From: Caldisericota bacterium
Lineage (GTDB): Bacteria > CG03 > B21-G15
NCBI GenBank assembly: GCA_003650255.1
Contig: QMOP01000001.1
Location: forward strand, 1-33,051
Direction of reading: 5' to 3'
DNA length: 33,051 bases
Under the pieces are notes generated by a model. That model did no database searches. It was not told the DNA's origin and worked only from the letters and a program-made list of their open reading frames with translations. Both the position numbers and the translations under genes were made by a program. Within the stretch, counting starts at the first letter, position 1. Every line of letters begins with the position of its first letter. This document shows positions 10,416 through 28,837 of this stretch, piece after piece.

Positions 10416-11051
10416 ATGAAATATTTGTTTTTTGCTTTATTAATTCTGTCTTCTTGTGGGAAGAATATAGAGGAGAGGTTAAAGGATCCAGCAAATGATC
10501 CACTGTTTTATAAAGGAGACTATAGTGGAGTATTTATGATATATGAGGATGAATTAAAAACAGGTGGCGGAATGATGTTTTATGCTTCTCCTGATAATCA
10601 GGAACTTGATTTCTTTTATTCAGATGATGGAAATAAGGTTATAAGATATTACTGGAATGGTGGAGAAGTGTTTGATTACAATTCAGAAAGTTATCAGCAT
10701 AACTGGTGTGGTTTTGGATTGATAGTTGGCCATAGCTGGGAAGAGGCTGAAGAGGTTTCAATGGATTTTTCTGGTATTGGTTATTCTAAGTTGAAGTTTA
10801 AAGTTAAGGGTTATCTTTCTCAAAATACTGTTTTGAAAATCGAAGGACCTAAGAAAGCCGGATCATCAGAAGTTGCAGATTACATTGAACTGGATTCCAG
10901 CGACATTTCATATTCGTGGAAGGAATTTTCACTTCCTATTTCATCTTCTTCTTTAAAGGATTTCAATATTTATGTGGGGATAATCTTTGAGGCAACAGAA
11001 AAAGGGAGTGGTGGGGAGGTTTTTATTGACTCCCTGAGATTTGAAAGATAG
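10416..11051 (+). CDS. Lipoprotein with CBM-like beta-sandwich domain
   Basis: Lipobox LILSSCGK. The C-terminal pattern (SKLKFKVKG, YSWKEFSLPI, VFIDSLRFE) is shared with four other proteins in the window. Confidence 0.5.
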   Translation: MKYLFFALLILSSCGKNIEERLKDPANDPLFYKGDYSGVFMIYEDELKTGGGMMFYASPDNQELDFFYSDDGNKVIRYYWNGGEVFDYNSESYQHNWCGFGLIVGHSWEEAEEVSMDFSGIGYSKLKFKVKGYLSQNTVLKIEGPKKAGSSEVADYIELDSSDISYSWKEFSLPISSSSLKDFNIYVGIIFEATEKGSGGEVFIDSLRFER

Positions 11052-12379
11052 TGCCAAGGATTTTCATTGTTGATCAGGAAGGAAAAGATTTAGGAGAATT
11101 CCTGAGAAGTAAAGGATATGATACTCTGGTGTTTTACAGAGGAAAAGAGGCTATAGAAGAAATAAAAAAAAGAAAACCTGATGTCATTATTTTGGAACTC
11201 AGATTACCTGATGGAGATGGGTTTACCTTTTTAAATGAACTTGAAAAAATTGGGATTACAATTCCGGTGATTGTCATCACATGGGTTGATAAGAAAATTG
11301 CAGGCTATACACTTTCAAAGATGGGTGCATTTGCTTACTTTAATAAGCCTGTTGATAGGGAATTGGTTTTAAAGAGAGTAGAATATATTTTAAGATTTAA
11401 GGATATATTTGAAAAGGGAAAGGTTAGTAGAGTTCCTCCATTAAAAAGTATAAGTGGTCCGTGGAAAGGGAAAATAGAGGAGATTCTTAAAGAGGTGAAA
11501 AGTATTAAAATAAATGAAATAAAAAAAGCTATTAAAGATGGCAATCCAAGACGAGCTCTTGAAATTTTACATTTTCTAAAAAGTTTTGTTGAAAAAGAAG
11601 AATTAGAGTTTTTCTACAGGTCGGTTATCTGGGAAGAACAAAAAGTTCCTTATGAAGAAGAAAGGAGAGATAATGTAACAGAATTAATTAATGAAGCATG
11701 GAAGTGCTACCTTTCTTCTGATTTTGATTCAGCACTTTCAAAAGTTAAAGAACTTCTTTTAAATGAGGAAGGAGTGGAAAGTATAAGAATAATAAACGGA
11801 ATTCTATCTAGGGAAGGTATAGAAATTGAAAAAGTGGAGGGAATGAAGGTAAAAGAGAAACCCAACTTATTTTCTTATATTTCATATTTTTCTATTTTAA
11901 CTGGGGTTTTCTTTTCAACATTTTTATTTTCTATTTTAGGAGTAATTTTTGGTTTTGTGGGTAGAGTTAAAGGTAATAAAAAGTTCGGAACCTATGGAAT
12001 GGTAATGGGGGGTTTTCTTTTTATTTCCTTTCTTTTTGGATCAAAACCCATTTCATACTATTTTAAAAAAAGGAGGATTTCTGCTGGTTTCAGTTTTTAT
12101 CTTTATCCGGACTCATTCAAATTAGGCAGAGGAAGTATAACCATAAGATATAAATTACCAAAAAAAGCAAAGGTAACAATTCTACTGCTGGATGAGGAGA
12201 AAAAATTTGTGAGGGAGATGGAGGATGGTTATTTTGAGAAAGGAGAGTATACAATTGAGTGGGATGGTTATGATGGAAGGGGTGGTTATGTTTCACCTGG
12301 TATTTACTATTTACAAACAACAATTCTAATGGATAAAGAGGTAAGGGAGAGATTCTGGAGAGTAAATGTTAAAGATTAA
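11051..12379 (+). CDS. Receiver-domain (pseudo-receiver, Glu at phospho-acceptor position) membrane protein with C-terminal FlgD-Ig/T9SS-CTD-like domain
   Basis: GTG start overlaps the upstream TAG by 1 nt. REC fold motifs are IFIVDQE, PDVIILELRLPDGDG (codon GAA at 11195-11197 where Asp is expected), VIVITW and FNKP. A hydrophobic TM block lies around aa 273-330. The C-terminus contains GEYTIEWDGYDGRGGYVSPGIYYLQ. Confidence 0.7.
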   Translation: MPRIFIVDQEGKDLGEFLRSKGYDTLVFYRGKEAIEEIKKRKPDVIILELRLPDGDGFTFLNELEKIGITIPVIVITWVDKKIAGYTLSKMGAFAYFNKPVDRELVLKRVEYILRFKDIFEKGKVSRVPPLKSISGPWKGKIEEILKEVKSIKINEIKKAIKDGNPRRALEILHFLKSFVEKEELEFFYRSVIWEEQKVPYEEERRDNVTELINEAWKCYLSSDFDSALSKVKELLLNEEGVESIRIINGILSREGIEIEKVEGMKVKEKPNLFSYISYFSILTGVFFSTFLFSILGVIFGFVGRVKGNKKFGTYGMVMGGFLFISFLFGSKPISYYFKKRRISAGFSFYLYPDSFKLGRGSITIRYKLPKKAKVTILLLDEEKKFVREMEDGYFEKGEYTIEWDGYDGRGGYVSPGIYYLQTTILMDKEVRERFWRVNVKD

Positions 12380-12917
12380 AGGGTTTACTTTAATAGAACT
12401 TATGCTTGTTGTTGCAATAATTGGAATACTTGCAATGGTGTCTATTCCCCGATATGCTGATTTAATAAGAAAGTCATGGGAAGCAAGAACAAAAGGGAAT
12501 CTTGGAATTTTAAGAAGTGCGGTAACGATTTACTATGGAGATAATGAAGGAAGGTGGCCCCAACCACGAGATCCTGATAACGGAGACAGTATTTATGGAC
12601 ATGTTGATCTTGCGAGTGTTCTTGTGGATAAATATATTGATGCAATTCCTCCTGGAAGACACTGGTGTGAGGAGATTAAAGAAAATGGAGGAACTGGAAG
12701 GTGGGGTGAGAACTGTCTTGTAAGAAGCTATCCTCCTGATCAGGAAACAGGCTGGGGATGCTGGGTTGGTTTTGTTGATGATGCGGGAACTTTAAAGGGA
12801 GAGGTTGGTTGGAGTTATTGTCCTGATACAGGAAAAGTTTATCTTCATTGCAGGGATAACTGGAGTTCAAATCCTGGAGCATATGATTTACAGGGCACAC
12901 CATACTGTGATTGGTAG
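12366..12917 (+). CDS. Type IV pilin / T2SS pseudopilin-like protein (prepilin N-terminal cleavage/methylation domain)
   Basis: MLKIKG|FTLIELMLVVAIIGILA is a class III signal peptide with Gly-1, Phe+1 and Glu+5. The globular C-terminal domain carries 6 Cys. Confidence 0.85.
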   Translation: MLKIKGFTLIELMLVVAIIGILAMVSIPRYADLIRKSWEARTKGNLGILRSAVTIYYGDNEGRWPQPRDPDNGDSIYGHVDLASVLVDKYIDAIPPGRHWCEEIKENGGTGRWGENCLVRSYPPDQETGWGCWVGFVDDAGTLKGEVGWSYCPDTGKVYLHCRDNWSSNPGAYDLQGTPYCDW

Positions 12918-15704: not shown

Positions 15705-16925
15705 TTGAAAAGGCGAAAAATAACTTTCCTTCTTCCTTCAATTGCCGGCTTTTATACAAAGGATGTAATAGAAGAAGAAATAAAGATTTTTAGAAGAAAA
15801 AAGCCTGATATAAGTGTAGAGGTTCACATACTTTCTTGGACCAAACTGTGGAGTATGTTGGTTGATATAATGAAAAGAAGAAAAACAATCCCCTCTCCAG
15901 ATATAATTGCTATAGGAAATACATGGCTTGGAACAGCTTTGTATTTTGAATTACTTATTGATATTTCCAAATTTACCTCGTTTTTTTCTGAGAAGGTTTT
16001 TTTGCCAAAGCTTGTTAAGAATAAAATAGTGCTTAAATATTCGGTCCCATGGATTTCAGACATAAGGGTTTTATATTATAGAAAAGATATTCTTCAAAAG
16101 ATTAATGTTGATGAGTCTGAAATTAAAACAATAGATGGGTTTGTCAAATCCTGTGAGAAGATAAAAAAAGAGATTAAGGATATTTATCCATTTGCTATTT
16201 CTGGACAGAAAGAGGAGATTTTAATCCACGATTTATTTCCCTGGCTTTATATAGCAGGTAATTTTTATAGAAGGGTGGGGAACAAAATAAGATTTTTCTC
16301 AGAAAAGGTGTATGAGGGAATGAGGTTTTATTTTGCCCTTGTCAGAGACTATTATATTCCCTATCGTTTGAAGCTGAAAGTGGCGCCTCCAGGAAATTTT
16401 TTTACAGGAGATTATGCATTTCAAGTTTCTGGTACCTATCCTAAAAAGAGTATATTCAATAAAAAACACTCTGAATACAGAGAGAATGTTGCTAAAAATT
16501 TTGGAGTTTCTTTTCTCCCTTCAACTAATGGAAAAACACCAGTTACATATATAGGAGGAATAAATCTTGTAGTTCCATATACTGCAAAAGATGTTTCCTC
16601 ATCTCTTGAATTTATAAAATTCCTTATCTCTCCAGAGTCTCAGCTTAGATGTGTTTCTTCTCTTAGCATGCTACCTGCCAGAGTTGATTGTTTTGAGAAG
16701 TTCTTTACTGAAAATGAAGGAGAGATAAAGAAGGTATTTTTGGAATCTTCAAAAAAGGGAAAGACCTTAAGTTGCGTCCCGCTTCTTGGGACAATTGAAA
16801 AGATGGTTTCATATTTTACCACTTCTATTTTTAGGTTAATGCTTGAAAGAAAATATAATGAGGAAATACTCAGAAAGAAGGTAATTCAGCTTATAGAGGA
16901 GATAGATTTTATAGAAAGATGGTAG
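15705..16925 (+). CDS. Family-1 solute-binding-protein-like protein without a recognisable signal peptide or lipobox (candidate cytoplasmic ligand sensor)
   Basis: TTG start. 406 aa with SBP-like layout (KITFLLP as first strand, GNTWLG, ISDIRVLYYRKD, GGINLVVP). By eye it aligns from residue ~6 onto the mature part of the 2486 SBP. 7-nt overlap with the GGDEF gene. Confidence 0.55.
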   Translation: MKRRKITFLLPSIAGFYTKDVIEEEIKIFRRKKPDISVEVHILSWTKLWSMLVDIMKRRKTIPSPDIIAIGNTWLGTALYFELLIDISKFTSFFSEKVFLPKLVKNKIVLKYSVPWISDIRVLYYRKDILQKINVDESEIKTIDGFVKSCEKIKKEIKDIYPFAISGQKEEILIHDLFPWLYIAGNFYRRVGNKIRFFSEKVYEGMRFYFALVRDYYIPYRLKLKVAPPGNFFTGDYAFQVSGTYPKKSIFNKKHSEYRENVAKNFGVSFLPSTNGKTPVTYIGGINLVVPYTAKDVSSSLEFIKFLISPESQLRCVSSLSMLPARVDCFEKFFTENEGEIKKVFLESSKKGKTLSCVPLLGTIEKMVSYFTTSIFRLMLERKYNEEILRKKVIQLIEEIDFIERW

Positions 16926-18358
16926 AAGAAGTAATTTCTAAATTTTTGAAAGAACTTGAGAGAAATTTTTATTCTCTTGAGAGACTTACAGAAGTATCTC
17001 TTGAATTTCTACAGAGAGTATCTGGAAGTAGGACTGTTGGAATTTTTCTTTCATCCCCTGAAGAAAGGAATGTCTGGAGGATGAAGAAAATAATTCATTT
17101 AGGGAAATTTGTCGAAGGAGAAGAGGAGATAGATTTGAGAGAAGGAGTTAACAGGCAGTTATTAAAACTGAAAAGGAGAGAAAAAAAGTATTTTATCAAG
17201 AGTTATAAAGATAGCTTTTATCTTTACTTTCCTCTTGGTGATGGGGAAGTTATAGGCTGTTTAAGATTTGTAGATGACAGGAAGAGGAGGAAGGGTATCT
17301 TTTCAAAATTATCAGAGATAGAAGTGCTTGCATATATTATAGCGAGTTATATGAATAAGCTATTTTTGTGGGAAGAAGCACAGGTAAGAAGTAGAATGCT
17401 TGGTAGTTTTATGAAGCTTTCAACAATTCTTACTAAGGAAAAGTATTTAAGAGGAATTTTAAGAGAGATAATATATGAACTTGAAGAAAGTTTCAGATTT
17501 GATTTCATAAGAGCATATTTCATAGATAAGGAGGAAAGGAGTATTTTCGGTTTTATAGGTATTAACTGGAAGAGGGAGATTCAGGATATTTCCCATTTAA
17601 AAATTTTTCTTGATGAAGAGGAGAACAGGCTTTCAGAGTATGTTAAGTCGGGAAGTGAATTTAAGATTTATGATGAAGGATGTTCATTATACTTATCACT
17701 TAAGAGTAAAGGTGAAATTTTTGGCATATTAGAAGTGAGTAATATATACTCTCAGGAGAGAATAGATGAAGGAACTATTAATTTCCTGAAGTCATTTTTG
17801 AATCACATTAATTTTGCCATTGAAAAAGCCACTCTTTTCGAAGAGATAGAGAGATTATCCTTAAAGGATGGATTAACAGGGCTTTATAACATAAGGTATT
17901 TTAAAGAGAGAGTTAAAGAGGAAATAGAAAGGTCAAGAAGAAACAATCTCTGTTTCAGTATGGTTATGATTGATCTGGATAATTTTAAGAAGATAAATGA
18001 CAGTTTTGGACACAGTACAGGGGATAAAGTTTTAAAGTTTTTTTCAGAAGAGTTGCAGAAAAATATGAGAAAAAGTGATGTCATTTGTAGATATGGCGGA
18101 GATGAGTTTTTAGTGCTTTTACCGAGAGTGAATATTGGAAAAAGCAATTTCATGAAAGAAAGGATAAGAAAGGTTTTATGTAAAGAGATAAGGATAGGTA
18201 ATTTGAAAGTAAGTATTTCAGCCAGTATAGGAGGAGTGGTTTTTCCATTTGATGGGGATACAGTTGAGAAGCTTTTTGAGAGAGCAGACCATGTTTTATA
18301 TAAAGTTAAGAGGAAAGGGAAAATGGATTTTAGGTTATTTAGTGAAGATGCAAGATAA
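16919..18358 (+). CDS. Soluble GAF-domain diguanylate cyclase (GGDEF) with intact I-site
   Basis: The C-terminal GGDEF domain has DGLTGLYNIRYF and IDLDNFKKINDSFGH, with an active site RYGGDEF (GGDEF codons at 18095-18109). RKSD (18068-18079) lies 5 residues upstream, matching the RxxD inhibitory site. The N-terminal ~300 aa are GAF-like, and there is no TM segment. Confidence 0.9.
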   Translation: MVEEVISKFLKELERNFYSLERLTEVSLEFLQRVSGSRTVGIFLSSPEERNVWRMKKIIHLGKFVEGEEEIDLREGVNRQLLKLKRREKKYFIKSYKDSFYLYFPLGDGEVIGCLRFVDDRKRRKGIFSKLSEIEVLAYIIASYMNKLFLWEEAQVRSRMLGSFMKLSTILTKEKYLRGILREIIYELEESFRFDFIRAYFIDKEERSIFGFIGINWKREIQDISHLKIFLDEEENRLSEYVKSGSEFKIYDEGCSLYLSLKSKGEIFGILEVSNIYSQERIDEGTINFLKSFLNHINFAIEKATLFEEIERLSLKDGLTGLYNIRYFKERVKEEIERSRRNNLCFSMVMIDLDNFKKINDSFGHSTGDKVLKFFSEELQKNMRKSDVICRYGGDEFLVLLPRVNIGKSNFMKERIRKVLCKEIRIGNLKVSISASIGGVVFPFDGDTVEKLFERADHVLYKVKRKGKMDFRLFSEDAR

Positions 18359-18413: not shown

Positions 18414-18448
18414 TTTACTGATAGGAATTTAACGAGGAGGTGATGAAG

Positions 18449-19111
18449 ATGAAGGAGAAAATTCTGACTGCTGTATGTATGGTTTTTCTTGCTGGATGTT
18501 TAGCTAAAAAAGAGGTTGTGAAGGAGGAGTTTGTTCCAGAAGCTCAACAGATGAGTTCAGCCCAGCAGGAGTCAGGATATAAAGGGTATGCTGTTCAGTT
18601 TCCTTTTTATGTTTACAAAGATAGAACATATCGTGGTAACCATTACATTCCAAGCGGTTGGATGGGAGATTATGGAGATATAAAGTTGAATGAGAATTGC
18701 CGGGAGAATCCTTATTCAGGAAAAACATGTATTAAAATTGTCTATACTGCAAAGAAATCCCAAGGAGCAGGATGGGCAGGAATTTACTGGCAGAATCCAG
18801 CAAATAACTGGGGGACTGTTAAAGGAGGATATGATTTGACAGGATCAAAAAAACTTGTTTTTTATGCGAGAGGAGAAAAAGGGGGAGAGGTTGCTGAATT
18901 TAAAATGGGAGGAATACAGGGTGAATACAGTGATACAGATATGGCAACTACAGGTCCGATTGTATTGAGTAAGAAATGGAGAAAGTATGAGATAGACCTT
19001 ACAGGACTTGACCTTTCTTATATTTCAGGTGGTTTCTGCTGGGTGACCTCTTCACAGGATAATCCTGAAGGATGCACGATATATCTTGATGAGATAGTAT
19101 ACATTAAATGA
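18449..19111 (+). CDS. Lipoprotein with CBM-like beta-sandwich domain
   Basis: The ORF opens at GTG 18440, and in-frame ATGs lie at 18443 and 18449. The ATG at 18449 has the best spacing to the RBS. Lipobox FLAGC. Motifs are GWMGDYGDI, GWAGIYWQNPANNWG, LVFYARGEKGGE, WRKYEIDLTGL and CTIYLDEIVY. It is a close paralog of the N-terminal domain of the next gene. Confidence 0.55.
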   Translation: MKEKILTAVCMVFLAGCLAKKEVVKEEFVPEAQQMSSAQQESGYKGYAVQFPFYVYKDRTYRGNHYIPSGWMGDYGDIKLNENCRENPYSGKTCIKIVYTAKKSQGAGWAGIYWQNPANNWGTVKGGYDLTGSKKLVFYARGEKGGEVAEFKMGGIQGEYSDTDMATTGPIVLSKKWRKYEIDLTGLDLSYISGGFCWVTSSQDNPEGCTIYLDEIVYIK

Positions 19112-20397
19112 TATTCATCTTTCTGATATTGTATTTAAAGGCAATTGATTATTTTTACGTATACTCATCATGTAAAGATGAAATAAACAGGTTCTCTCCC
19201 TCAGGCTTTATGGGAGATGTAAATGATTTCTACCTTACACATGATTATAAAATTCGTTCGCCTTTAAAATGTTCAAGAGGCAGTTTGAAAATTAAATATG
19301 AACCAAAGGGTGAAAAAGGATGGGCGGGTATTTATTTCCTTCATCCGCCAAACAATTGGGGAAATATAAGAGAAGGGTATAATCTTACTGGAGCAACAGA
19401 AATAATCTTTTATGCAAAGGGTAAGAAGGGCGGTGAAAAGATTTCTCTTATAAAAATAGGAGGTTTAACAGGAAGGTATCCTGACAGTGATACCATGCAG
19501 ATTGGGCCACTTCGCCTTAGTAAAAAATGGAAGAGATTTACAATTGATATTTCAAAGATGAATTTAAGATATATCGCAGGGGGGTTCTGTGTAATTCTTA
19601 AGAAGGAGGATAATCCAAAGGGATGTACGATTTATCTTGATGGAATTGCATATAGAGGTGGGAGAATATATGCTTTAAAGACCCTTGGTGATGATGTCCC
19701 TCCAAAACTTAGTATCAAACTTTCATCAAATGAGTTAAATCTTGGAAAAAATCTTGATATCTTCTTGGAAGCAAAGGATAATAGAGTTGTTAAAGAGTGG
19801 AGTTTAAAGATTTTAAATCAGGAAAGGAATGAAATTAAAATTTGGCAGGGATCTTCAGATCCCCCAAAAAAGATTATCTGGGATGGAAAGGATGATATAT
19901 ATAAAAAGTATGTTCCATCTGGAGAATATACATTTATTTTTAAAGCAAAAGATGAAGCAGGAAATGTTTCAGAGGTTCAGTCAAAGGTGGTGGTAAAAAA
20001 GAAAGAGAAAAAGGAGTATAAAAAGATAAAGATAGTGGAAAGCGAAAAGGGTTTAAGGGTGAGATTGAAATCAGACATTCTTTTCGGAATAGGAAAATAT
20101 AAGTTAAAGAAGGAAGTTTATCCTATTCTTGATGAACTTGTTGAACTTTTAAAGGAGTATCCAGAGAATAAAATTTTAATAGAAGGACATACTGATAGTG
20201 TGGGTTCAGAAGGTTATAATTTAAAACTTTCAATTAAAAGGGCTAAAGAGGTCAGGAATTATCTTGTAAAAAAGGGAATAAGTAGCGAAAGAATAAAGGT
20301 AGTAGGTTATGGTGAGAAAAAACCAATAGCATCAAATAAGACAAGACATGGAAGAGCACTTAATAGAAGAGTTGAGGTGATAATATTAAAGAAGTAG
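19108..20397 (+). CDS. Envelope protein: CBM-like domain + Ig-like (FlgD-Ig-type) domain + OmpA C-terminal peptidoglycan-binding domain
   Basis: ATGA overlap with the upstream gene. The N-terminal domain has GFMGDVNDF, GWAGIYFLHPPNNWG, IIFYAKGKKGGE, WKRFTIDISKM and CTIYLDGIAY. The middle has IIWDGKDDIYKKYVPSGEYTFIFKAKDEAGN. The OmpA_C motifs are EGHTDSVGSEGYNLKLSIKRAKEV and NRRVEVII. Confidence 0.8.
   Translation: MIFIFLILYLKAIDYFYVYSSCKDEINRFSPSGFMGDVNDFYLTHDYKIRSPLKCSRGSLKIKYEPKGEKGWAGIYFLHPPNNWGNIREGYNLTGATEIIFYAKGKKGGEKISLIKIGGLTGRYPDSDTMQIGPLRLSKKWKRFTIDISKMNLRYIAGGFCVILKKEDNPKGCTIYLDGIAYRGGRIYALKTLGDDVPPKLSIKLSSNELNLGKNLDIFLEAKDNRVVKEWSLKILNQERNEIKIWQGSSDPPKKIIWDGKDDIYKKYVPSGEYTFIFKAKDEAGNVSEVQSKVVVKKKEKKEYKKIKIVESEKGLRVRLKSDILFGIGKYKLKKEVYPILDELVELLKEYPENKILIEGHTDSVGSEGYNLKLSIKRAKEVRNYLVKKGISSERIKVVGYGEKKPIASNKTRHGRALNRRVEVIILKK
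20378..20386 (+). promoter_or_regulatory. Possible extended -10 promoter (TGaTAATAT) inside the 3' end of the OmpA-like gene, positioned to start transcription just before the riboswitch
   Basis: TG at 20378-20379 and TAATAT at 20381-20386. The predicted start near 20393 lies ~6 nt 5' of the aptamer. No good -35 was seen. In an AT-rich genome such matches are frequent. Confidence 0.3.
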
Positions 20398-20398
20398 T

Positions 20399-20480
20399 GG
20401 GAAAAAGGCAAACTCCGGGTGACCGGAGGACGCAAAGCCACGGATCCTGATATTCTGTCAGGATAGCCGGGCTGCCCCGA
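20399..20480 (+). promoter_or_regulatory. c-di-GMP-I (GEMM-I) riboswitch aptamer
   Basis: GC-rich island in an AT-rich gap. It has GGCAAAC; a hairpin CUCCGG(20413-18)-GUGA-CCGGAG(20423-28) with a GNRA loop; GACGCAAAGCC (20429-39); a second hairpin AUCCUGA(20444-50)/UCAGGAU(20458-64) flanked by CGG/CCG with a bulged AG; and GCCGGGCUGCC. The order and core strings match the Vc2-type consensus. The SD AAGGAGG lies at 20485-91 and the ATG at 20497. Confidence 0.85.
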
Positions 20481-20496
20481 GGAAAAGGAGGTGTTT

Positions 20497-21165
20497 ATGA
20501 AGAGGATTCTTCTCGGAGCAATTGTCTGCTTTGCTTCCTTCGGGGTTCTTTTTTCTTTCACATCTCAGGGAATTTCAACAGTTACAGCTACTGCCGAGCT
20601 TACAGGGGAAGGTATTGTTCAGATGAGTATTGAGATTAAGAATGTTTTGACACATTCAACTACAACTCAAATTTACTGGTCAGGAATTACACTTCCAACT
20701 GGATGGGAAGTGGCAGATAGTTACATCCTTCTTCATTCAACAATTACAGCTGCATCAGGTGGAATAAGGATTTACACTGACAACAAGTCAGCAGATGCAA
20801 ATCCGCAGTATACAGGGTCAGATAGTGGAGGAGGACTTGTTGATACCTCGGATACAACAAAAAAATTGCCTATAGGATGGAAAATTACAGAGGATACAAC
20901 AACAGTTAGTGCTGCTGATCCGGATAGTGATAGTAGCTGGTTTTATTTTAAAGACAAAAGTGATTCTGATTTCTGGATCAATGCTGATACTCAAGATTAC
21001 TCTACAGTGAAGAAAGCAGATGGGATTCATTATAATCAGGGTTCTTCAAATTATGGAGGAGGAACCTCTCCAGATGCAATATACATGGAATGTAATTTCA
21101 CGAATGCTGTAACTCCGAGGACATACAAAACTTCCACAATTCGAATAGAGGCATTTATACAGTAA
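20497..21165 (+). CDS. Secreted protein of unknown family (candidate surface fibre/adhesin subunit), first gene downstream of the c-di-GMP riboswitch
   Basis: I prefer the ATG at 20497, 5 nt after GGAGG, over the GTG at 20491. Signal peptide MKRILLGAIVCFASFGVLFSF. T/S/D-rich mature protein. It shares a ~190-aa domain with the 21921 protein (LPTGWxVAD, IYTDNxS, GLVDTSxTTKxL, YFKDKxxSDF, NAVTPRTYKT). Confidence 0.5.
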   Translation: MKRILLGAIVCFASFGVLFSFTSQGISTVTATAELTGEGIVQMSIEIKNVLTHSTTTQIYWSGITLPTGWEVADSYILLHSTITAASGGIRIYTDNKSADANPQYTGSDSGGGLVDTSDTTKKLPIGWKITEDTTTVSAADPDSDSSWFYFKDKSDSDFWINADTQDYSTVKKADGIHYNQGSSNYGGGTSPDAIYMECNFTNAVTPRTYKTSTIRIEAFIQ

Positions 21166-21213
21166 GAAGTTAGTTTATATAAGAAAGAGTTTTAAAAAGG
21201 AAAGGTAGATAAA

Positions 21214-21924
21214 ATGTGGATATTTTCTAGTTTATTCTTATATTCACTTCTTGCAATGTCTGTTACTCCAGCAAAGTATGAGTTACTTCTTTCCACAGGA
21301 GAAAGAAACACCATTTATTTCACCGTCAAAAATGATAAATTAGAAATGATGAAAGTAAGGGTTAATTCTAAATACTGGTTTGTTTTACCGGAGAATAAAG
21401 GAATAGAGATTGATTCATGGTTGAGTTTTAGTCCAAAAGAGTTTTATTTAAAGAAAGGAGAGGGAAAAAGGGTTATATGTGAGGTTATTGTTCCTAAGAA
21501 TGCTAGTGGGTTCTTAAATGGAATGCTTTCATTCAATCAAATTGATTCTCCAACTTCCGTTAATATCACCATAAGTGTTCCTGTTTATATTATAATAAAG
21601 GATAACTATTCCTTTGATTTTGAGGTTAGGGGACTTAAGAGGGAAAATGAATATCTTCTTGTTGAGATTTTTAATAAAGGAAATGTTTATTTTAGACCAA
21701 GAGGAAGGATAAAAATGAATAGAGAGAGAAATTTTTTAATTTTTAAGAAAAAAAGTTTTCTATTTGAAAAAAGATTTAAAGAAGAAAGACATATTTTTCC
21801 TGGTAGTAGCGGATATGTTAAACTGGGAAATTTGGGTTTAAAAGATGGAAAATATGAGGTTATATTGGAACTTGAGTTTTGGGGAGATAAAAAAATAAGG
21901 AAGAAAATAGTGGTTTTGAAATGA
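21214..21924 (+). CDS. Secreted two-domain Ig-fold-like protein (possible PapD-like periplasmic chaperone); function unknown
   Basis: Signal peptide. The mature start VTPAKYELLLSTGERNTIYFTVKNDKLEMMKVRVN has the strand pattern typical of pilus-chaperone or DUF916-type Ig domains. A second beta-rich half follows. This is a weak pattern-based call. Confidence 0.3.
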   Translation: MWIFSSLFLYSLLAMSVTPAKYELLLSTGERNTIYFTVKNDKLEMMKVRVNSKYWFVLPENKGIEIDSWLSFSPKEFYLKKGEGKRVICEVIVPKNASGFLNGMLSFNQIDSPTSVNITISVPVYIIIKDNYSFDFEVRGLKRENEYLLVEIFNKGNVYFRPRGRIKMNRERNFLIFKKKSFLFEKRFKEERHIFPGSSGYVKLGNLGLKDGKYEVILELEFWGDKKIRKKIVVLK

Positions 21925-22997
21925 TTATTCTTTTTCTTTTTTTGTTTTTTCTTTATCCAGAGATTTTAACAATCTACAATGATGAGGGGATATCAGGGGA
22001 TAATATCTACACATGGAATGATGGGGGTGCGGATTATGATGGAAGTTCGCAGGATCTGGAATCTGTTCCAGAAGGGTTTAAATGTTTTAAGACCACAGCG
22101 ACCTCTGGAAGTTATGCTGGATGGGGAGTTTTTTACAATACAGAGCAGGACTTTTCAGAATATCAAAATGGAGATTTGAGATTCTGGATTTACTCTTCAA
22201 CAGGGAATATAAAGGTTGAGATAGAAAGATGGAATGGTGAAACAGTGACAAAATATTTGAGTGATTATGGCTGGAATGATTCTTATGTTAATACTTGGAG
22301 ACTTTTTTCCATTCCATTAGATGATTTTGCAGTAGATATTACAACATCAGTGAAATCTCCATTTAAAATTACAGTCCTTACAACACCAGCAACATTTTAT
22401 ATTGATATGGTGAGATGGGCGGTTAATATTGATACCGGAAGTTTTAATTTAAAAATAAAAAGGATTTCAGATGATGTTGAAGTTTCATCGTTCACTTTTA
22501 CCAGGGTAAATTTAATAGGGCTTCCAACAGGATGGGTTGTTGCTGATCAGTATATAGAAATTGAAGTAGAACCTTCGGATATTTCCTGGGGAATACAGAT
22601 TTACACAGACAATGAGAGTCCCTCAGCAGACCCAAGATATACAGGAACAGAGGATCCAGCAGGTCTTGTTGATACATCGACTACAACAAAGAGATTACAA
22701 ATGGGCTGGACAATAGAATATTTAACCCATTCACTTTCAGAACTTGGAACAGGAGAGCCAGGAACTTGGGTAAATGGGGGCTATCAGTGGAAGTATTTTA
22801 AAGATAAAGCAAGTTCAGATTTTACAAATGGAGGAAGTTATGTAACTCCTTGGAATAATGAGGGTTTATTATGGAATACATGGCAGAGAGATTCAAAAAG
22901 TCCTCCAAATTATATTTATATAAGTGCGGATTTTTCAAATGCAGTTACACCAAGAACATATAAAACTAAAATTTTTGTAGAGTTTTATTATCAATGA
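21921..22997 (+). CDS. Secreted protein: CBM-like beta-sandwich fused to the same unknown domain as the 20497 protein (candidate tip or adhesin subunit)
   Basis: ATGA overlap with the upstream gene and an N-terminal signal. The CBM-like part has YAGWGVFY, DLRFWIYSSTGNIKVEI, WRLFSIPLDDF and FYIDMVRWA. The C-terminal half is paralogous to the 20497 protein, ending NAVTPRTYKTKIFVEFYYQ. Confidence 0.5.
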   Translation: MIILFLFLFFLYPEILTIYNDEGISGDNIYTWNDGGADYDGSSQDLESVPEGFKCFKTTATSGSYAGWGVFYNTEQDFSEYQNGDLRFWIYSSTGNIKVEIERWNGETVTKYLSDYGWNDSYVNTWRLFSIPLDDFAVDITTSVKSPFKITVLTTPATFYIDMVRWAVNIDTGSFNLKIKRISDDVEVSSFTFTRVNLIGLPTGWVVADQYIEIEVEPSDISWGIQIYTDNESPSADPRYTGTEDPAGLVDTSTTTKRLQMGWTIEYLTHSLSELGTGEPGTWVNGGYQWKYFKDKASSDFTNGGSYVTPWNNEGLLWNTWQRDSKSPPNYIYISADFSNAVTPRTYKTKIFVEFYYQ

Positions 22998-24127
22998 GAA
23001 GATTATGTTTTTTATTATTATTTTTTGAGTTGCCTCTACTTTCTTTTCAAACAATATCTTCTTATACAATTACAGCTTTTGTTCAATTTACTGTTGAGGA
23101 TTCAACTCCACCTGTAATAGATCATGAAGAAATAAAAAGGATTTCAGAGATAACGAGAATAGCAAGAGTTATAGCAACTTTTAGAGATGAAATTCAACTT
23201 TCAAAGGTGGGAATTTACTATTCATCATCTCCTTCAGCAGGTTTTTTGAAAAAGGAGTTTTCTCCTCAGACGACTTTTTATAGTATGAATGTATTAATAG
23301 AAAAGGAGATAATAAATCCTCCAACATTTTATTACAGGTTAATGGCTTTCGATGGAATAAACTATTCATATCTTCCCTCTTCCAGTTCCTGGTTTGAGGT
23401 TAAAGTAAATAGGATTGAATATTTCGATATTTCTTCATCTGGAGGAGAGATAATCCTTTATGATGGAAATTCAGAAGATGGAGAGTTAAGGTTGATTTAT
23501 CCTAAGAATGTAGTAGATGAGGATGTAAGATTAAAAATTGAGGAAACATCTCCTTTTGAGTTTAATGTGGAAAATGATGAGTTCCTCTGGAGAAATCCAG
23601 TATCAGTTTATTCTTTTCAACCAGATATTGATTTTAAAAGAGAGATAATATTAGAAGTTCCATATCAAGATGTGAATGATGACGGAAGGGTTGATGATGT
23701 GAATATTGAAGAGAGGAACTGTCAACTTTTCTTTTTTGATGGTTTTGAATGGAGATTTTGTGGTGGAGATTTGGATAGTAAGAAGAATATTATAAGAGTG
23801 AGGACAGACCATCTTTCAATTTATGGAGTTTTTCTTTTGAAAAAAATTTCAAAAAATCTTCTTAAACCAAAACAGAAATTTATTTCTCCTGGAGTAAAAG
23901 ACGGAGTAAATGATGAGATTGTCTTTGATGGACTTGATGATTCTAATACAGAAGTAAAAATCTTTGATTTGAGGGGAAGAATGGTAAAAAGGATAAAGGG
24001 GTATCCATATAAGTGGGATGGAAGGGATAAAAGGGGAAGATTGGTAGAACCAGGAGCATACATATATCAATATTTTCATCCTCTTTTAGATAAGAGAATA
24101 ACAGGTGTTGTAATTGTTGTAAGATGA
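22994..24127 (+). CDS. Secreted protein of unknown function with C-terminal FlgD-Ig/T9SS-CTD-like domain
   Basis: ATGA overlap with the upstream gene. Signal peptide MRRLCFLLLFFELPLLSF. The C-terminus reads EVKIFDLRGRMVKRIKGYPYKWDGRDKRGRLVEPGAYIYQY...GVVIVVR. Confidence 0.5.
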   Translation: MRRLCFLLLFFELPLLSFQTISSYTITAFVQFTVEDSTPPVIDHEEIKRISEITRIARVIATFRDEIQLSKVGIYYSSSPSAGFLKKEFSPQTTFYSMNVLIEKEIINPPTFYYRLMAFDGINYSYLPSSSSWFEVKVNRIEYFDISSSGGEIILYDGNSEDGELRLIYPKNVVDEDVRLKIEETSPFEFNVENDEFLWRNPVSVYSFQPDIDFKREIILEVPYQDVNDDGRVDDVNIEERNCQLFFFDGFEWRFCGGDLDSKKNIIRVRTDHLSIYGVFLLKKISKNLLKPKQKFISPGVKDGVNDEIVFDGLDDSNTEVKIFDLRGRMVKRIKGYPYKWDGRDKRGRLVEPGAYIYQYFHPLLDKRITGVVIVVR

Positions 24128-25005
24128 GATATTTAAAGAAGTTAATGGTTATATTGCTTTTCTCCAAACTTTATTCAGCATTTAATTATTTTCCAATTCC
24201 GTCAAGATTTCTATTTGCTGGAATTCCTGTTGATCTCAGAAATGATGCTGGAAGTATTTTCTCCAATCCAGCTGGACTTGATTCTCTTGTAACAAAACAG
24301 ATTGAAACTACATATTCATTGGCTTATCCAGAGATGGATGAAGATATATCAGGTTATACAGTTTTATCAGGTATGAGTTTAAAATTAGGTTTAGGAGTTG
24401 GAGTAGGTTTTTCCTATCTTGATGTTGATAGAATTTACAAAGAAAGTGAAATACTTATTGGAGCAGGCATAAAGGGGGATAGGATTCATTTACCGGTTTC
24501 AGTAGGTTTTAATTTGAAATTTCTAAAAAATAAATATATAATTGGTAAAAGGGAAGAGGGTGATATTGTGTTTTCAAAAGGAAAATTAATGAAAACGGTT
24601 TCAATAGATTTAGGATTTATTTTCAGAAAAGAAAAATTTTTAGTTTCCCTTTCTTTGAAAGATATAAATAGGCCAGATGTTGGAATTTATGAAAGTGTGA
24701 GGAAGAATTGTTCTATAGATTTTGATATCTCCTACAGAGTTTTTCCAGTGTATGAAGGAGACATTTCTTTTGGTTATCTGTATGAAGAAGGAAATAGTAG
24801 ATTCAGCGGAGGATATTCTCAGTATTTGTATTCAAATCTGGTAAGGGGGTATATCGGAACAAATCTGGATGCTGTTGGTCTGGCGATTTCAGTTGTTTTA
24901 CCATATCCTAAATTCAGTTTCACCTTTGAATATGGTTATTATTTTCCAATTTATTTAAAGGAGACATTAGGTGCCCATTCTATTAGTTTAAAGTGTGAAT
25001 TTTAA
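24124..25005 (+). CDS. Small outer-membrane beta-barrel protein (PorV/PorQ/FadL-like N-terminal NPAGL motif)
   Basis: ATGA overlap with the upstream gene and a signal peptide. Motif DAGSIFSNPAGL near the N-terminus. Alternating-hydrophobic strands throughout, ending SISLKCEF with a terminal aromatic residue. Confidence 0.5.
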   Translation: MRYLKKLMVILLFSKLYSAFNYFPIPSRFLFAGIPVDLRNDAGSIFSNPAGLDSLVTKQIETTYSLAYPEMDEDISGYTVLSGMSLKLGLGVGVGFSYLDVDRIYKESEILIGAGIKGDRIHLPVSVGFNLKFLKNKYIIGKREEGDIVFSKGKLMKTVSIDLGFIFRKEKFLVSLSLKDINRPDVGIYESVRKNCSIDFDISYRVFPVYEGDISFGYLYEEGNSRFSGGYSQYLYSNLVRGYIGTNLDAVGLAISVVLPYPKFSFTFEYGYYFPIYLKETLGAHSISLKCEF

Positions 25006-26101
25006 AGTGGGAAGGGATATAGTTGTAGAAGGATTGACAAAGTCCTTTTCTAAAGGTGTATATGGAGTTAAAAACTTAAATTTTAAAATAAAAGAAGGTG
25101 AGTTTTTTGTCGTTGTTGGACCAAGTGGTTCTGGAAAAACCACTTTTTTAAGATTGATAGCAGGACTTGAAAGACCTACTTCTGGAAAAATTTTGTTTGG
25201 AGATGAGGATATAACTCATAAAAATCCAAGAGAGAGAAAAGTTGCTATTGTTTTTCAGGAGTATGCAATTTATCCTCATCTTTCAGTATATGAAAATATA
25301 GCATTTCCATTAAGGATAAGAAAATATTCAAAGGATTATATTGATAGAAAAGTTAGAGAAGTAGCAAAGATTCTTGAAATAGAGAATCTTCTTTTCCGGA
25401 AACCAGATACACTTTCAGGAGGACAGAGGCAGAGGGTTGCACTTGGAAGAGCAATTGTGAAGGATGCTGAAATATTTTTATTTGATGAACCATTATCAAA
25501 TTTGGATGCAAAATTAAGGATTAGTATGAGGATAGAATTAAAAGAACTTCATAAAAGGATTAAGAAGACATTTATATATGTAACACATGACCAGAGTGAA
25601 GCAATGAGTATGGCTGATACAATATGTGTTTTAAAGGATGGTGAAGTTGTTCAATTTGGAAGACCTGACGAAATTTATAATAGACCAAAAAATCTATTCA
25701 CAGCAAAATTTTTTGGTGTTCCGCAGATGAATATTTTAAAAGGGAAGGTTAAAAATAGAGATGGAGAGATTTATTTTGATGAGGGAAGTGGATCCCTTTT
25801 AATTGATGGAAAGTTCAAGAAATATGAGAATGAGGAGATTTTACTGGGTATAAGGCCAGAGCATATATATGACAGATTGTATACCTCAAGACCTGAAAAA
25901 GGAACAACACTCATTGCCACATTTGAAATGATGGAAATTCTTGGGAAGGATTTTTATCTCTATCTTAACACAGGGTATCATAATATTGTTGTTAGAACAA
26001 CATATAAATCTGAAATTAAACCAGGGCAGGATATTATGATTGTATTTGATATGAAGAAGGCACATTTTTTTAATATTAAAACAGGAGAGAGAATTGATTA
26101 A
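24995..26101 (+). CDS. Sugar ABC transporter ATP-binding protein (MalK/MsmK/UgpC type)
   Basis: GTG start at 24995, with an alternative GTG at 25007. Walker A GPSGSGKTT, signature LSGGQRQRV, Walker B IFLFDEPLSNLD, H-loop YVTHDQ, and a C-terminal MalK-like regulatory/TOBE region. Confidence 0.9.
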   Translation: MNFKVGRDIVVEGLTKSFSKGVYGVKNLNFKIKEGEFFVVVGPSGSGKTTFLRLIAGLERPTSGKILFGDEDITHKNPRERKVAIVFQEYAIYPHLSVYENIAFPLRIRKYSKDYIDRKVREVAKILEIENLLFRKPDTLSGGQRQRVALGRAIVKDAEIFLFDEPLSNLDAKLRISMRIELKELHKRIKKTFIYVTHDQSEAMSMADTICVLKDGEVVQFGRPDEIYNRPKNLFTAKFFGVPQMNILKGKVKNRDGEIYFDEGSGSLLIDGKFKKYENEEILLGIRPEHIYDRLYTSRPEKGTTLIATFEMMEILGKDFYLYLNTGYHNIVVRTTYKSEIKPGQDIMIVFDMKKAHFFNIKTGERID

Positions 26102-27446
26102 TATACTTCTTCTTATCTGCATTTTGGTTATTATTTATTTGATTTATGTAAAGGGTTTATTATGTAAGAGAATTAGAGAGATGGAGATTGAAAAAGAGAA
26201 CCTTACAGAGAGGATCAATCAGAGAGAAGATGAGATGAAAGAGTTAATTAGAGAAAAGAATCTTCTTGAAGGAACTTTAAAAGAATTTAAATTTTTCAGG
26301 AAAATATCCTTTATTTTAGCAAGCAGTATTGAAATGAAAAGAATTTTAAATATGATTATAAATGAAGTAAAGGATAGGTTTGGATATGATGAGGTTGTTA
26401 TATTTTTGAAGGAAGGGGGTCGTGAGAGTTTTTTGCCTTTTCCAGAGAATAAAGTTTTTGAGGAGAGAGTTGTTAAAAAAGTTGAGGAGTCCTATAATAC
26501 AGGAAAAGTGAATATAGATTCAGAACTTGCATTTATTCCGCTTGAATCAGAAACAGAGGTTTTGGGAGTGGTATTTGTGAAAAAAAGAGGAGAGGTTAAA
26601 GAGGAAGAGATAAGAAAACTTATGCTTTATACCTCTCATGCTGTTCTTGCTTTAAAAAATGCAAGGAAATATGAACTTGAAAGGAATTTTAGAAAACTTC
26701 TTGAAGAGGAGGTAAGAATTGCAACAGAAAAATTGAGGCGGGCACAGGAGGAGTTAATAAAAAGTGAAAGACTTGCTGCTGTTGGTGAAATGGCTTCAAT
26801 TGTTGCACACGAGATAAGAAATCCAATGAGTTTTATAAAAATATGTATTGAAAGAGTAGCAAAGTATATGAAAGAACACCCTAGAGATTATAAATATGTT
26901 GATATGCTTTTTGAGGAGATACAGAAGATAGATAGAATTTCCGAAAATATGCTTATATTTGCAAAACCTCCCAAACCTAAAATTGAAGAATTTTTTTCAA
27001 AAGAGGTTATGGAGAAAGCAAAGTTACTTGTAAATAAAACATTGAGAAAAAATAATATTAAATTGAAGATAGAAATTGAAAACGTTAAGGTAAAAGGAGA
27101 TTTAAGTCAATTGCTTCAGGTATTTTTAAATCTTTTTCAGAACTCAATTTATTTTCTTAAAGAGTATAACGAGGAAGAAGATAGAATTATTGAGATTATT
27201 GGGAATAAAGGAGAGAGTTTTTTTGAGTATATTTTTACAGATAATGGTCCAGGGATTCCTGATGAAATTAGAGGTAAAATTTTTGAACCATTTTTTACAA
27301 CAAAGGCCCAGGGAACAGGTCTTGGTCTTAGTATTTCTAAGAGACTTTTAAATGAGATGAAAGGTGATATTTTGCTTAATCAGGGTTCTGGAAAAGGAGC
27401 GACTTTTAAAATTTTATTACCATTGGGAGGGAAAGATGGCTGTTAA
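26094..27446 (+). CDS. Membrane-anchored GAF-domain sensor histidine kinase
   Basis: TTG start, an N-terminal TM segment ([15 protein letters not shown]), a coiled coil and a GAF-like region. H-box [12 protein letters not shown]-box [11 protein letters not shown]1 DNGPGIP and G2 GTGLGLSI. Confidence 0.85.
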
Positions 27447-28179
27447 GGTTTTATTGATTGAGGATAACAAACCTCTTTCAGAGATTCTTAAAAATTCTCT
27501 CGAAGAAGAGGGATATGAGGTTGAAACTGCTTTTACTGCTGAAGAAGGATTGGAGAAGGCAGAAAGTTTTTTGCCTGATGTTGCTGTTGTTGATGTAAAA
27601 CTTCCTCACAGAGATGGTATTTCAATTATGAATGAACTTGTTTACAGAACATTTTATCCTTTACCGATAATTGTAGTATCAGTTATAAAGAGTGAAGCGG
27701 TTGTCCATGACGCTTTTCTTTTTGGTGCATTCTCTTTCCTCAAAAAACCATTTTCTGTTGAAGAACTTATAAAAGAGATTGAAAGGGCAGTGAAAGATGT
27801 AAAGGAGAGGAAGTATAAAAGAATTCTCATTATAGAGGATGATTTGGCTTTAGCAGAGATTCTTAAAGATGAACTTGGTAAAGAAGAAAACTGGAAGGTT
27901 GAAATTGCTGAAAATCTTAAGAAAGGAAAGGATTTAATTTCTCCTGTATTAGATTTGATTATTCTTGATATGAGATTTCCAAAAGGAGAAGGGACAGAAA
28001 TCATAAAGTTTTTACAGAGTAAACCAAGGTGGATACCTGTTATAATTTTTACAGCATATAAAGAGGAGTTCTTTCCAAAGGTGAAAGATGTAGAAGGTGT
28101 TTATTTTATGGAAAAGGATGGAAAAGTTGAGGATTTGAAGGAGAAGATAAAGGAAATATTTGAAGGAGGGCAGAGATGA
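27436..28179 (+). CDS. Tandem double-receiver response regulator without output domain
   Basis: I prefer the ATG at 27436 ([21 protein letters not shown]) over the ORF-track start at 27364, which lies inside the kinase gene. REC1 has VAVVDVKLP and KKP. REC2 has RILIIEDD, LIILDMRFP and IIFTAY. Confidence 0.85.
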   Translation: MAVKVLLIEDNKPLSEILKNSLEEEGYEVETAFTAEEGLEKAESFLPDVAVVDVKLPHRDGISIMNELVYRTFYPLPIIVVSVIKSEAVVHDAFLFGAFSFLKKPFSVEELIKEIERAVKDVKERKYKRILIIEDDLALAEILKDELGKEENWKVEIAENLKKGKDLISPVLDLIILDMRFPKGEGTEIIKFLQSKPRWIPVIIFTAYKEEFFPKVKDVEGVYFMEKDGKVEDLKEKIKEIFEGGQR

Positions 28180-28742
28180 AGAGGTGGCACATAAAATTCA
28201 AAACCACAGGAGAGGAAAGAGAGAATATTACAACAGAGGATTTGGTGTCTCTTCTTATTAGAAGAGAAATTCTTGAGGACGATTATATCTGGGATGAAAG
28301 AAATTCAAAATGGAAAGAAATAGGAGAAATTGAAGATTTTAAACCATTTTTTAGAGAGAGATATCCGGAAGGAAGGAAAAAGATTTTAATAATTGAGGAT
28401 GAGGATAATTTGAGAAGTTTTCTTGTTGAACACTTTCATTCCATTGGATATGCTGTTGTAGAAGCAAGGGATGGTTTAAGTGGATTTGAGAAGGTCAGGA
28501 AGGAGAAGCCGGATTTAGTTATTCTTGATATAAGATTACCAAAAATGAGTGGTTGGGAAGTGTGTAAGAAAGTAAAGATGGATAAGAATTATAAAAACAT
28601 ACCTATTCTTATGCTTACCTCAGAAAATGAACCTGTATCAGAACTACTCGGACTTTCGCTTGGAGCAGTGGAGTATATTACAAAACCATTCAGTCTTGAA
28701 GAGCTGACAAAAAAAATAGATAAACTTGTAAACTCTAAATAA
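28176..28742 (+). CDS. GYF_2-like N-terminal domain + receiver domain response regulator (no DNA-binding output)
   Basis: ATGA overlap with the upstream gene. The N-terminal ~60 aa read WHIKFKTTGEERENITTEDLVSLLIRREILEDDYIWDERNSKWKEIGEI. REC motifs are ILIIEDED, DLVILDIRLP, LMLTS and ITKPF. Confidence 0.75.
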   Translation: MKRWHIKFKTTGEERENITTEDLVSLLIRREILEDDYIWDERNSKWKEIGEIEDFKPFFRERYPEGRKKILIIEDEDNLRSFLVEHFHSIGYAVVEARDGLSGFEKVRKEKPDLVILDIRLPKMSGWEVCKKVKMDKNYKNIPILMLTSENEPVSELLGLSLGAVEYITKPFSLEELTKKIDKLVNSK

Positions 28743-28763: not shown

Positions 28764-28837
28764 GGGCGGGTAGCCCAGTTGGTGAGAGCGCTGCCCTTAC
28801 AAGGCAGAGGTCGGGAGTTCGAGTCTCCCCCCGCCCA
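28764..28837 (+). tRNA. tRNA-Val (anticodon UAC)
   Basis: 74-nt cloverleaf. Acceptor stem GGGCGGG/CCCGCCC with discriminator A. Anticodon stem CUGCC/GGCAG with loop CUUACAA. T-arm GGGAG-UUCGAGU-CUCCC. 5-nt variable loop. The D-stem GCCC/GAGC has one C-A mismatch. CCA is not encoded. Confidence 0.9.

Follow-up and report, generated by a model that had tools for sequence, protein, structure and literature searches.

The window analysed here, 33,051 nucleotides (nt) of contig QMOP01000001.1 from a Caldisericota bacterium, carries a genuine c-di-GMP-I (GEMM-I) riboswitch aptamer at positions 20398-20480 of the + strand, with a match to the family far beyond chance. The aptamer stands immediately 5' of an envelope cassette of five genes that begins with the ATG at 20497, and the reading favoured here, with a probability of about 0.62, is that this canonical GEMM-I element acts on the cassette as a translational ON switch for cyclic di-GMP (c-di-GMP). 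The whole window was searched with cmscan against Rfam 15 at gathering thresholds, and only two RNAs were found in it: tRNA-Val(UAC) at 28764-28837 and the aptamer. The latter reaches 72.7 bits, the gathering score being 59 (E = 1.4e-15; model RF03167, clan CL00126) and is matched at full length, over model positions 1-80 of 80; the E-value falls to 7.7e-18 when the local stretch alone is scanned. Two more matches from the same clan, lower-scoring and each at or above its own gathering score and presumably belonging to RF01051 and RF03168, overlap it, and a covariance model built in this study gives it 100 bits. Folded alone, the 83 nt adopt a minimum free energy (MFE) structure of -38.6 kcal/mol that is the family fold, with P1, P2 and P3 reproduced. 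Relative to dinucleotide shuffles this fold has a z-score of -4.1, and an equally good one arose in 1 of 200 shuffles.

An earlier note, made by reading the letters of the window, had proposed a GEMM-I aptamer ahead of the gene at 20497, and the scan bears out its identity, strand and coordinates. The note's transcription of 20399-20480 is exact. The gap that it described behind the OmpA-like gene does measure 99 nt, from the stop codon TAG at 20395-20397 to the ATG at 20497, and the sharp GC-rich island that it saw there is real, with a GC fraction of 0.56 in 20400-20499 and about 0.3 on either side. The parts of the element, numbered where possible after Vc2, the c-di-GMP-I riboswitch of Vibrio cholerae, are the following.

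20398 to 20480, + strand: GEMM-I aptamer, full length (cmscan, MFE structure, own covariance model).
20398 to 20401, + strand: 5' strand of P1, UGGG, with its partner CCCG at 20476-20479 (MFE structure).
Immediately 5' of G20407, + strand: junction AAAAA, followed by G20407.
20407, + strand: G, equivalent of Vc2 G20 (unpaired column 10 of the Rfam alignment).
20408-20409 with 20432-20433, + strand: short helix of G20408-C20409 with G20432-C20433.
20413 to 20428, + strand: P2 hairpin CUCCGG/CCGGAG (20413-20418/20423-20428) closed by the GNRA loop GUGA at 20419-20422 (cmscan and MFE structure).
20431, + strand: C, equivalent of Vc2 C44, whose interhelical partner is G20466, the G83 equivalent (Rfam alignment column).
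20434, + strand: A, equivalent of Vc2 A47, in a column that holds G in the GGC variant family (comparison of the RF03167 and RF01051 consensus).
20436 to 20473, + strand: P3 hairpin with bulged A20440, unpaired A20465-G20466, a continuous upper helix and a UUC loop (cmscan and MFE structure).
20474 to 20478, + strand: tail GCCCC, comprising the A91 equivalent, the C92 equivalent C20475 and the 3' strand of P1; candidate anti-Shine-Dalgarno strand (alignment columns).
20485 to 20492, + strand: Shine-Dalgarno (SD) sequence AAGGAGGU, with AAGGAGG at 20485-20491 (read from the sequence).

In the Rfam alignment, the ligand-contact columns are filled by G20407, A20434 and C20475, which together form the canonical G/A/C pocket. 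The corresponding residues of Vc2, namely G20, A47 and C92, are described as the three ligand-contacting residues in two sources (PMC4744006, PMC5888326). G20 touches the G-alpha of the ligand, and an A in its place leads to cyclic GMP-AMP (cGAMP) or dual specificity (PMC6140456, PMC5888326). C20475 occupies the C92 position, in which it is the Watson-Crick partner of the ligand's G-beta. The C44 and G83 columns are filled as well, by C20431 (within GAC) and G20466 (within AGCC), and a tertiary pair between them is predicted; this interhelical pair is given as conserved in GEMM-I in PMC4744006. The earlier note had stressed that the G of GGCAAAC is retained and had named c-di-GMP as the likelier ligand. 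G20407 indeed sits in the G20 column, and the canonical pocket agrees with that choice of ligand, so that c-di-GMP is expected to bind here.

Compared with Vc2 and Vc1, the c-di-GMP-I aptamers of RF01051, the element in the window shares the P1/P2/P3 architecture, the GNRA loop on P2, the core strings GGCAAAC, GACGCAAAGCC and AGCCGGGCUGCC, the contacts G20/A47/C92, the C44-G83 pair and a place 5' of envelope or adhesion genes. It differs in its short, continuous P3, which is without the 11-nt tetraloop receptor (CUAA...UAUG), in a P1 of 3-4 base pairs, in starting right after the upstream stop codon, and in having a minimal hairpin between tail and SD, not a terminator. In P1 the Rfam structure line pairs 20398 with 20480, 20400 with 20477 and 20401 with 20476. 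Comparison with the RF01051 consensus (CUAA/UAUG) and the MFE structure both give no 11-nt receptor in P3. The core collinear with Vc2 that the earlier note described, with its GNRA-capped P2 and a second hairpin, therefore stands; the bulge that it took for the tetraloop receptor is a junction-proximal AG/A element instead (A20440 and A20465-G20466). The GUGA tetraloop is thus present on P2 while P3 is a continuous helix lacking the canonical receptor, and docking of GUGA into a helical receptor of P3 is possible. Judged by its sequence, the element is a c-di-GMP-I (GEMM-I) aptamer with all the testable features of that class except the canonical tetraloop receptor.

The GC content of the riboswitch is 59%, and that of tRNA-Val(UAC) (28764-28837, + strand) is 68%, where the surrounding region has about 33%. 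Both values suggest that stable RNA structure was selected for, a warm habitat being a possible cause.

The same arrangement recurs beyond the window. The covariance model mentioned above was built from the aptamers of the window and of two related loci, L001 and L012, and was searched on 108 further loci gathered with a profile of the first cassette gene (open reading frame 1, ORF1) from genome and metagenome collections. With Rfam, GEMM-I is found ahead of the ORF1 homologue in L001, L002 and L012; the own model finds aptamers upstream of the homologue in many of the 108 loci, and Rfam confirmed a sample of these. Of 81 distinct loci in which the upstream sequence exceeds 450 nt, at least 15 have a GEMM-I ending 600 nt or less upstream of the ORF1 homologue. 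The cassette loci that bear GEMM-I come from metagenome-assembled genomes (MAGs) of Endomicrobia, Elusimicrobiota and Clostridia. No degenerate GEMM was found in five riboswitch-less cassette loci with Rfam at E of 1 or below, and a match to the own model in L011, at 18.8 bits, is not credible. In an alignment of 24 of the aptamers, which favours structure because it was fitted to the model, standard pairs occupy 95.4% of cells, compared with 83.2% in shuffles and 21-47% when the partners are slid; changes on both sides occur in 14 of 20 pairs, and the observed values were reached by none of 500 shuffles. Compensatory changes among these 24 relatives are seen in five of the six pairs of P2 and nine of the twelve pairs of P3.

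The manner of control follows from what surrounds the aptamer. It starts one base after the stop codon of the OmpA-like gene, and its end is followed after 4 nt by the SD AAGGAGGU, which itself lies 5 nt ahead of the ATG at 20497. A terminator scan finds no intrinsic terminator on the + strand at the aptamer and the ORF1 leader, in line with the earlier note, which saw no hairpin plus U-tract and argued for translational control. Given the absence of a terminator and the adjacency of the SD, control is most likely exerted at translation initiation. A minus-strand "terminator" at 20428-20413 was rejected: it is the reverse complement of P2 followed by an A-run, and no gene converges there.

The SD-adjacent layout is likewise found in L001 and L012, and in all three representatives the aptamer tail can form a hairpin with the SD. 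In the window, GCCCC (20474-20478) pairs with GG-GGU (20487-20492) at -5.7 kcal/mol; in L012, UUGCCUC pairs with the SD GAGGUGA at -7.4 kcal/mol, and in L001, CUCC pairs with the SD GGAG at -3.3 kcal/mol. In the distant relatives L019, L068, L020, L080, L026 and L082, the aptamer tail (GCCGGGCUGCC...) serves as the 5' arm of a terminator that is followed by a U-run; in L020 an independent scan placed this terminator at 3771-3796, which overlaps 3680-3782, the span of the aptamer. Such double use of the tail, in the aptamer and in the stem of an intrinsic terminator, is the textbook layout of an anti-termination (ON) switch. Terminator-type loci of Clostridia and Elusimicrobiota MAGs (L019, L020, L080, L026) thus share with the window the aptamer class, the gene family and the use of the tail as switching strand; they act on transcription through an intrinsic terminator, whereas in the window the tail is set opposite the SD. 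We infer ON logic because the tail is complementary to the SD and because the same tail is a terminator arm in the distant relatives.

According to the proposed mechanism, in the absence of ligand the tail (G20474-C20478) would pair with the SD (G20487-U20492) and block ribosome binding. Once c-di-GMP is bound, C20475 would pair with the ligand and CCC(G) with UGGG in P1, so that the tail would be held within the aptamer. Since the tail is available either to the SD or to P1 and the ligand, but not to both, ligand binding should free the SD, and ORF1 would be translated, probably together with the tightly packed ORFs downstream. High c-di-GMP, which could be supplied by a GGDEF cyclase encoded 2 kb upstream, would in this way induce a pilus-like or adhesin-like surface apparatus. 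Two other candidate switching elements were rejected, namely a longer hairpin at 20474-20519, which is not above chance (z = -0.9), and an anti-SD within P2 or P3, where only 4-nt matches are seen by eye and are not conserved in L001 or L012.

Apart from the switch, two observations concern the relatives. L082 (8498-8592), L094 (5190-5284) and L099 (6278-6372) each have another GEMM-I, likewise with an ON-type terminator, which is located some 4.5 kb downstream from the ORF1 homologue, where the locus sequence ends. In loci of Clostridia-type MAGs, copies of a hairpin, GGAGUGUAAAGC-GAAA-GCUUUAC, sometimes with ...GUCAAACUUUCGUUUGACACUCC, stand between the riboswitch terminator and the gene (L019, about 3830-3960; similar in the leaders of L068, L072, L081, L082 and L099). 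This scattered short hairpin could represent a miniature repeat or some other structured RNA.

Several points weigh against a canonical translational ON switch. When the leader and 45 nt of coding sequence were folded with and without the aptamer enforced, the purine-rich SD paired with the pyrimidine-rich codons of the signal peptide either way, and no clean switch was modelled; with the aptamer enforced, the core GGAGG of the window has an unpaired probability of at most 0.1. The energies of hairpins between leader and coding sequence are not consistently better than with shuffled coding sequence (z from -2.3 to +1.2), and both these z-scores and SD accessibility varied with the length of sequence folded. 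The anti-SD hairpin is short, with 5 base pairs and a bulge, and P1 has just 3-4. Because all three SDs are of the GGAGG type, the complementarity between tail and SD is not true covariation. In addition, the best Rfam model is that of a variant family, RF03167; the promoter of the riboswitch is given by candidate sites; and the source is an uncultured MAG, for which ligand binding and switching are predictions from sequence.

The explanation that survives best beside the ON switch keeps the same aptamer and ligand and reverses the direction: folding of the aptamer 4 nt from the SD would hinder the 30S subunit or stabilise a downstream helix that sequesters the SD. It draws on the folding result just described, in which the SD is still largely paired with downstream codons when the aptamer is enforced, on the position of the aptamer very near the ribosome footprint, and on the V. 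cholerae Vc2/tfoY riboswitch, which is reported to repress. The complementarity of tail and SD predicts the opposite direction, however, and every terminator-type relative that precedes the homologous cassette has the build of an ON switch. Moreover, c-di-GMP generally induces adhesive surface structures and does not repress them; such structures are typical c-di-GMP-induced targets, and Vc1/gbpA reportedly acts as an activator. According to PMC4744006, the GEMM-I ahead of gbpA, Vc1, makes expression respond to c-di-GMP. ON is thus the probable direction, OFF a distinctly smaller chance, and other levels of control take up what is left.

One such other level would be Rho-dependent termination or mRNA stability in a long polycistronic transcript, with occlusion of the SD being secondary. 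The genes that lie upstream of the aptamer are the following.

16919 to 18358, + strand: GGDEF diguanylate cyclase gene, GAF-like and GGDEF, 2 kb upstream of the aptamer (Pfam GGDEF 1.8e-45, TIGR00254 1.8e-49).
19108 to 20397, + strand: OmpA-like gene, its stop codon directly adjoining the aptamer (ORF calls, Pfam).

The OmpA-like gene is preceded by a lipoprotein-like ORF (18440-19111) that is a paralogue of its N-terminal half (46% over 169 amino acids), and the domain common to the two has no Pfam match. L001 and L002 have this pair of genes ahead of the cassette as well, and in the nearest relatives the pair is often found upstream of it. Because the aptamer abuts the stop codon, the promoter of the riboswitch must lie inside the OmpA-like gene or else the riboswitch is intercistronic. 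A promoter scan finds a promoter-like CTGATA-17-TATAAT at 20192-20220 inside the gene, and an extended -10 element, TGATAATAT, is seen by eye at 20378-20386. In L012 and the Clostridia-type loci, ordinary promoter-like sequences stand just upstream of the aptamer. Alternatively, the riboswitch of the window may be intercistronic in a long transcript, since all ORFs from at least 16919 onwards lie on the + strand with small gaps. It is this run of genes on one strand, together with an aptamer that leaves no intergenic space for a promoter and an ORF1 that would expose RNA to Rho if left untranslated, that argues for control through Rho or mRNA stability. That possibility is nevertheless improbable: specific sequence support for it is lacking, the OmpA-like gene does contain promoter-like sites, and such effects would be compatible with translational control and downstream of it.

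A further alternative, slightly less probable again, concerns the ligand, with the aptamer belonging to the GGC class or having some other altered specificity and sensing 3'3'-cGAMP or another, unknown dinucleotide. It arises from the Rfam result itself, since the top-scoring model is RF03167 (c-di-GMP-I-GGC), ahead of RF01051. The c-di-GMP-I-GGC variant was reportedly defined by Weinberg et al. in PNAS in 2017, and we take "GGC" to encode positions 20, 47 and 92 (G20/G47/C92), which fits both Rfam consensus lines. These lines read GACGC-A-AAgCc in RF01051 and GGGACGC-G-AAgCc in RF03167, so that what sets the two cores apart is the first base left unpaired after ACGC, which a count made on the Vc2 sequence places at Vc2 position 47. 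In the window this base is A20434; it mismatches the consensus G of RF03167 at model column 37 and agrees with the consensus A of RF01051. Because the column that distinguishes the two families holds A, the pocket is canonical and the assignment to c-di-GMP stands. The window does resemble the GGC variant in its best covariance model, short P3, modelled P1 and A-rich 5' junction; it differs in the A at position 47 and hence in a pocket that reads GAC, not GGC. Membership of RF03167 was rejected on the absence of the defining G47.

The preference for RF03167 does not track the pocket, because aptamers with A47 in other loci, namely L012 (5883-5960), L020 (3680-3782), L082 (8498-8592) and L099 (6278-6372), also have it as their best model. 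A occupies position 47 in all 24 related aptamers. It is plausible that the preference stems from the modelled P1 and the short, receptor-less P3, RF01051 being the family that models the 11-nt receptor. Rfam clan competition thus labels aptamers with a canonical pocket and a short P3 as the GGC variant. For Rfam users this means that best-hit variant labels within a clan need checking at the defining column, since clan competition can mislabel aptamers whose pocket is canonical.

Altered specificity also gains from the sister loci. Position 20 is mostly G among the 24 aptamers, with C in L026 and A in L001 and L002, and A is the signature of cGAMP or dual recognition according to PMC6140456. 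L001 is the closest relative, with an ORF1 68-70% identical, and the A20 aptamers (L001, 2268-2351; L002, 5799-5908) stand ahead of the two closest orthologous cassettes. To judge from its sequence signature, A20 in these loci would mark a cGAMP or dual c-di-GMP/cGAMP aptamer, here outside Geobacter-type contexts, and the ligand input therefore appears to vary ahead of the cassette. The window shares the common scaffold of GEMM-Ib (3'3'-cGAMP) riboswitches such as Geobacter Gs1761, which its sister loci resemble further through A20; the window itself keeps G20 (G20407), and GEMM-Ib membership was rejected for it. G20 and C92 are canonical, and G20 disfavours cGAMP: Vc2 with its wild-type G20 has a picomolar Kd for c-di-GMP, compared with 10 uM for cGAMP (PMC6140456).

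The neighbouring cyclase points in the same direction. In the product of 16919-18358 the motif RYGGDEF is intact, an RKSD (RxxD) I-site lies five residues upstream of it, and the base-reading pair is Asn...Asp, spaced as Asn339 and position 348 of GacA. Hypr enzymes, which make cGAMP, have Ser at the base-reading position (PMC6456294). As the local protein has Asp there and not the Hypr Ser, it looks like a normal diguanylate cyclase, and it may be the local source of the riboswitch ligand. Chance resemblance or a decayed, non-functional relic is effectively refuted by E = 1.4e-15, the intact conserved core positions, the sense orientation directly 5' of a gene, and retention ahead of orthologous cassettes with compensatory changes.

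The cassette to which the ON switch is assigned comprises five genes.

20497 to 21165, + strand: ORF1, first cassette gene, encoding a secreted beta-sandwich protein of 222 amino acids (AlphaFold2 pLDDT 82.7).
21214 to 21924, + strand: ORF2, with a PapD-like two-Ig-domain (chaperone) fold (AlphaFold2 pLDDT 91, 45 homologues).
21921 to 22997, + strand: ORF3, a paralogue of ORF1, with the C-terminal ~160 amino acids 42% identical (sequence comparison).
22994 to 24127, + strand: ORF4, with a CHU_C domain, the type-B C-terminal domain of the type IX secretion system (T9SS) (Pfam CHU_C, 32.4 bits against a cut-off of 27).
24124 to 25005, + strand: ORF5, a PorP/SprF- or PorV-like outer-membrane beta-barrel, weakly matched, with all scores below the curated cut-offs.

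ORF1, a member of a small protein family that lacks Pfam domains, is 100% identical to DRI36_00090, a hypothetical protein from a Caldiserica bacterium MAG. Neither Pfam nor NCBIfam has a match to it, and ORF1, ORF2 and ORF3 all lack names in both databases. A fold search of the ORF1 model against the PDB gave no significant neighbour (best E 0.12), and chaperone-usher pilins, CanA and TasA came up at noise level alone; profile searches with ORF1 and ORF2 against PDB sequences found nothing. The fold of ORF2 is more telling. Foldseek matches it to CfaA (7e-12), to the WxL-interacting protein WxLIP of Enterococcus faecium (6e-10) and to CsuC, Caf1M and FimC (about 1e-8), all PDB matches having a probability of 1.0 and TM-scores of about 0.5, so that it resembles the periplasmic chaperones of chaperone-usher pili as well as the Enterococcus protein. 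TIGR04131 matches ORF4 weakly. No usher-sized gene is present in the cassette.

In the contigs of nine ORF1 homologues the same series was seen, with an ORF1 of about 230 amino acids, an ORF2 of about 255, an ORF3 of 360-410, an ORF4 with CHU_C and an ORF5 of about 310. The cassette (20497-25005 in the window) also occurs in L002, L004, L006, L008-L012 and many of L013-L120, spread over MAGs of Caldiserica, Elusimicrobiota, Endomicrobia, Omnitrophota and Clostridia. Its folds suggest that it plausibly encodes a chaperone-assisted surface structure. A bolder and rather doubtful proposal is that it represents a previously undescribed surface-fibre or adhesin assembly induced by cyclic dinucleotides, whose leaders toggle between G20 and A20 inputs (c-di-GMP versus cGAMP or dual) and between transcriptional and translational platforms. 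Such a system would be made up of two beta-sandwich subunits, paralogues whose C-terminal strand is conserved, together with a PapD-like chaperone-fold protein, a protein ending in a T9SS type-B domain and a small barrel like PorP/SprF, with no usher-sized gene, and it would be found in Caldisericota, Elusimicrobiota, Omnitrophota and Clostridia MAGs.

Other genes of the window encode enzymes of the glycoside hydrolase (GH) families GH94, GH5 and GH2, components of a sugar ATP-binding cassette (ABC) transporter, a CBM-like protein and a DUF5683 protein. The cassette is directly followed, at 24995-28742, by genes for a MalK-like ABC ATPase that has no permease genes next to it, for a histidine kinase, for a double-receiver response regulator and for a protein combining GYF_2 with a receiver. 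The stretch 11051-12917 encodes a response regulator carrying a fused FlgD-Ig-like domain and, next in order, a pilin-like protein that bears an N-terminal methylation motif; both are surrounded by genes for glycoside hydrolases and sugar transport.

The element is a known kind of riboswitch, a new member whose lineage is uncultured and whose translational platform is compact. In itself it adds nothing new to riboswitch biology, and its value lies in annotation. The switching strand would be the aptamer's own 3' tail, a compact translational ON design that could be reused as a sensor. For the organisms concerned, the riboswitch ties an unannotated envelope cassette of poorly studied phyla to c-di-GMP signalling, and this link, together with the PapD-like fold of ORF2, suggests that the cassette may produce an adhesive structure on the cell surface when c-di-GMP is high.

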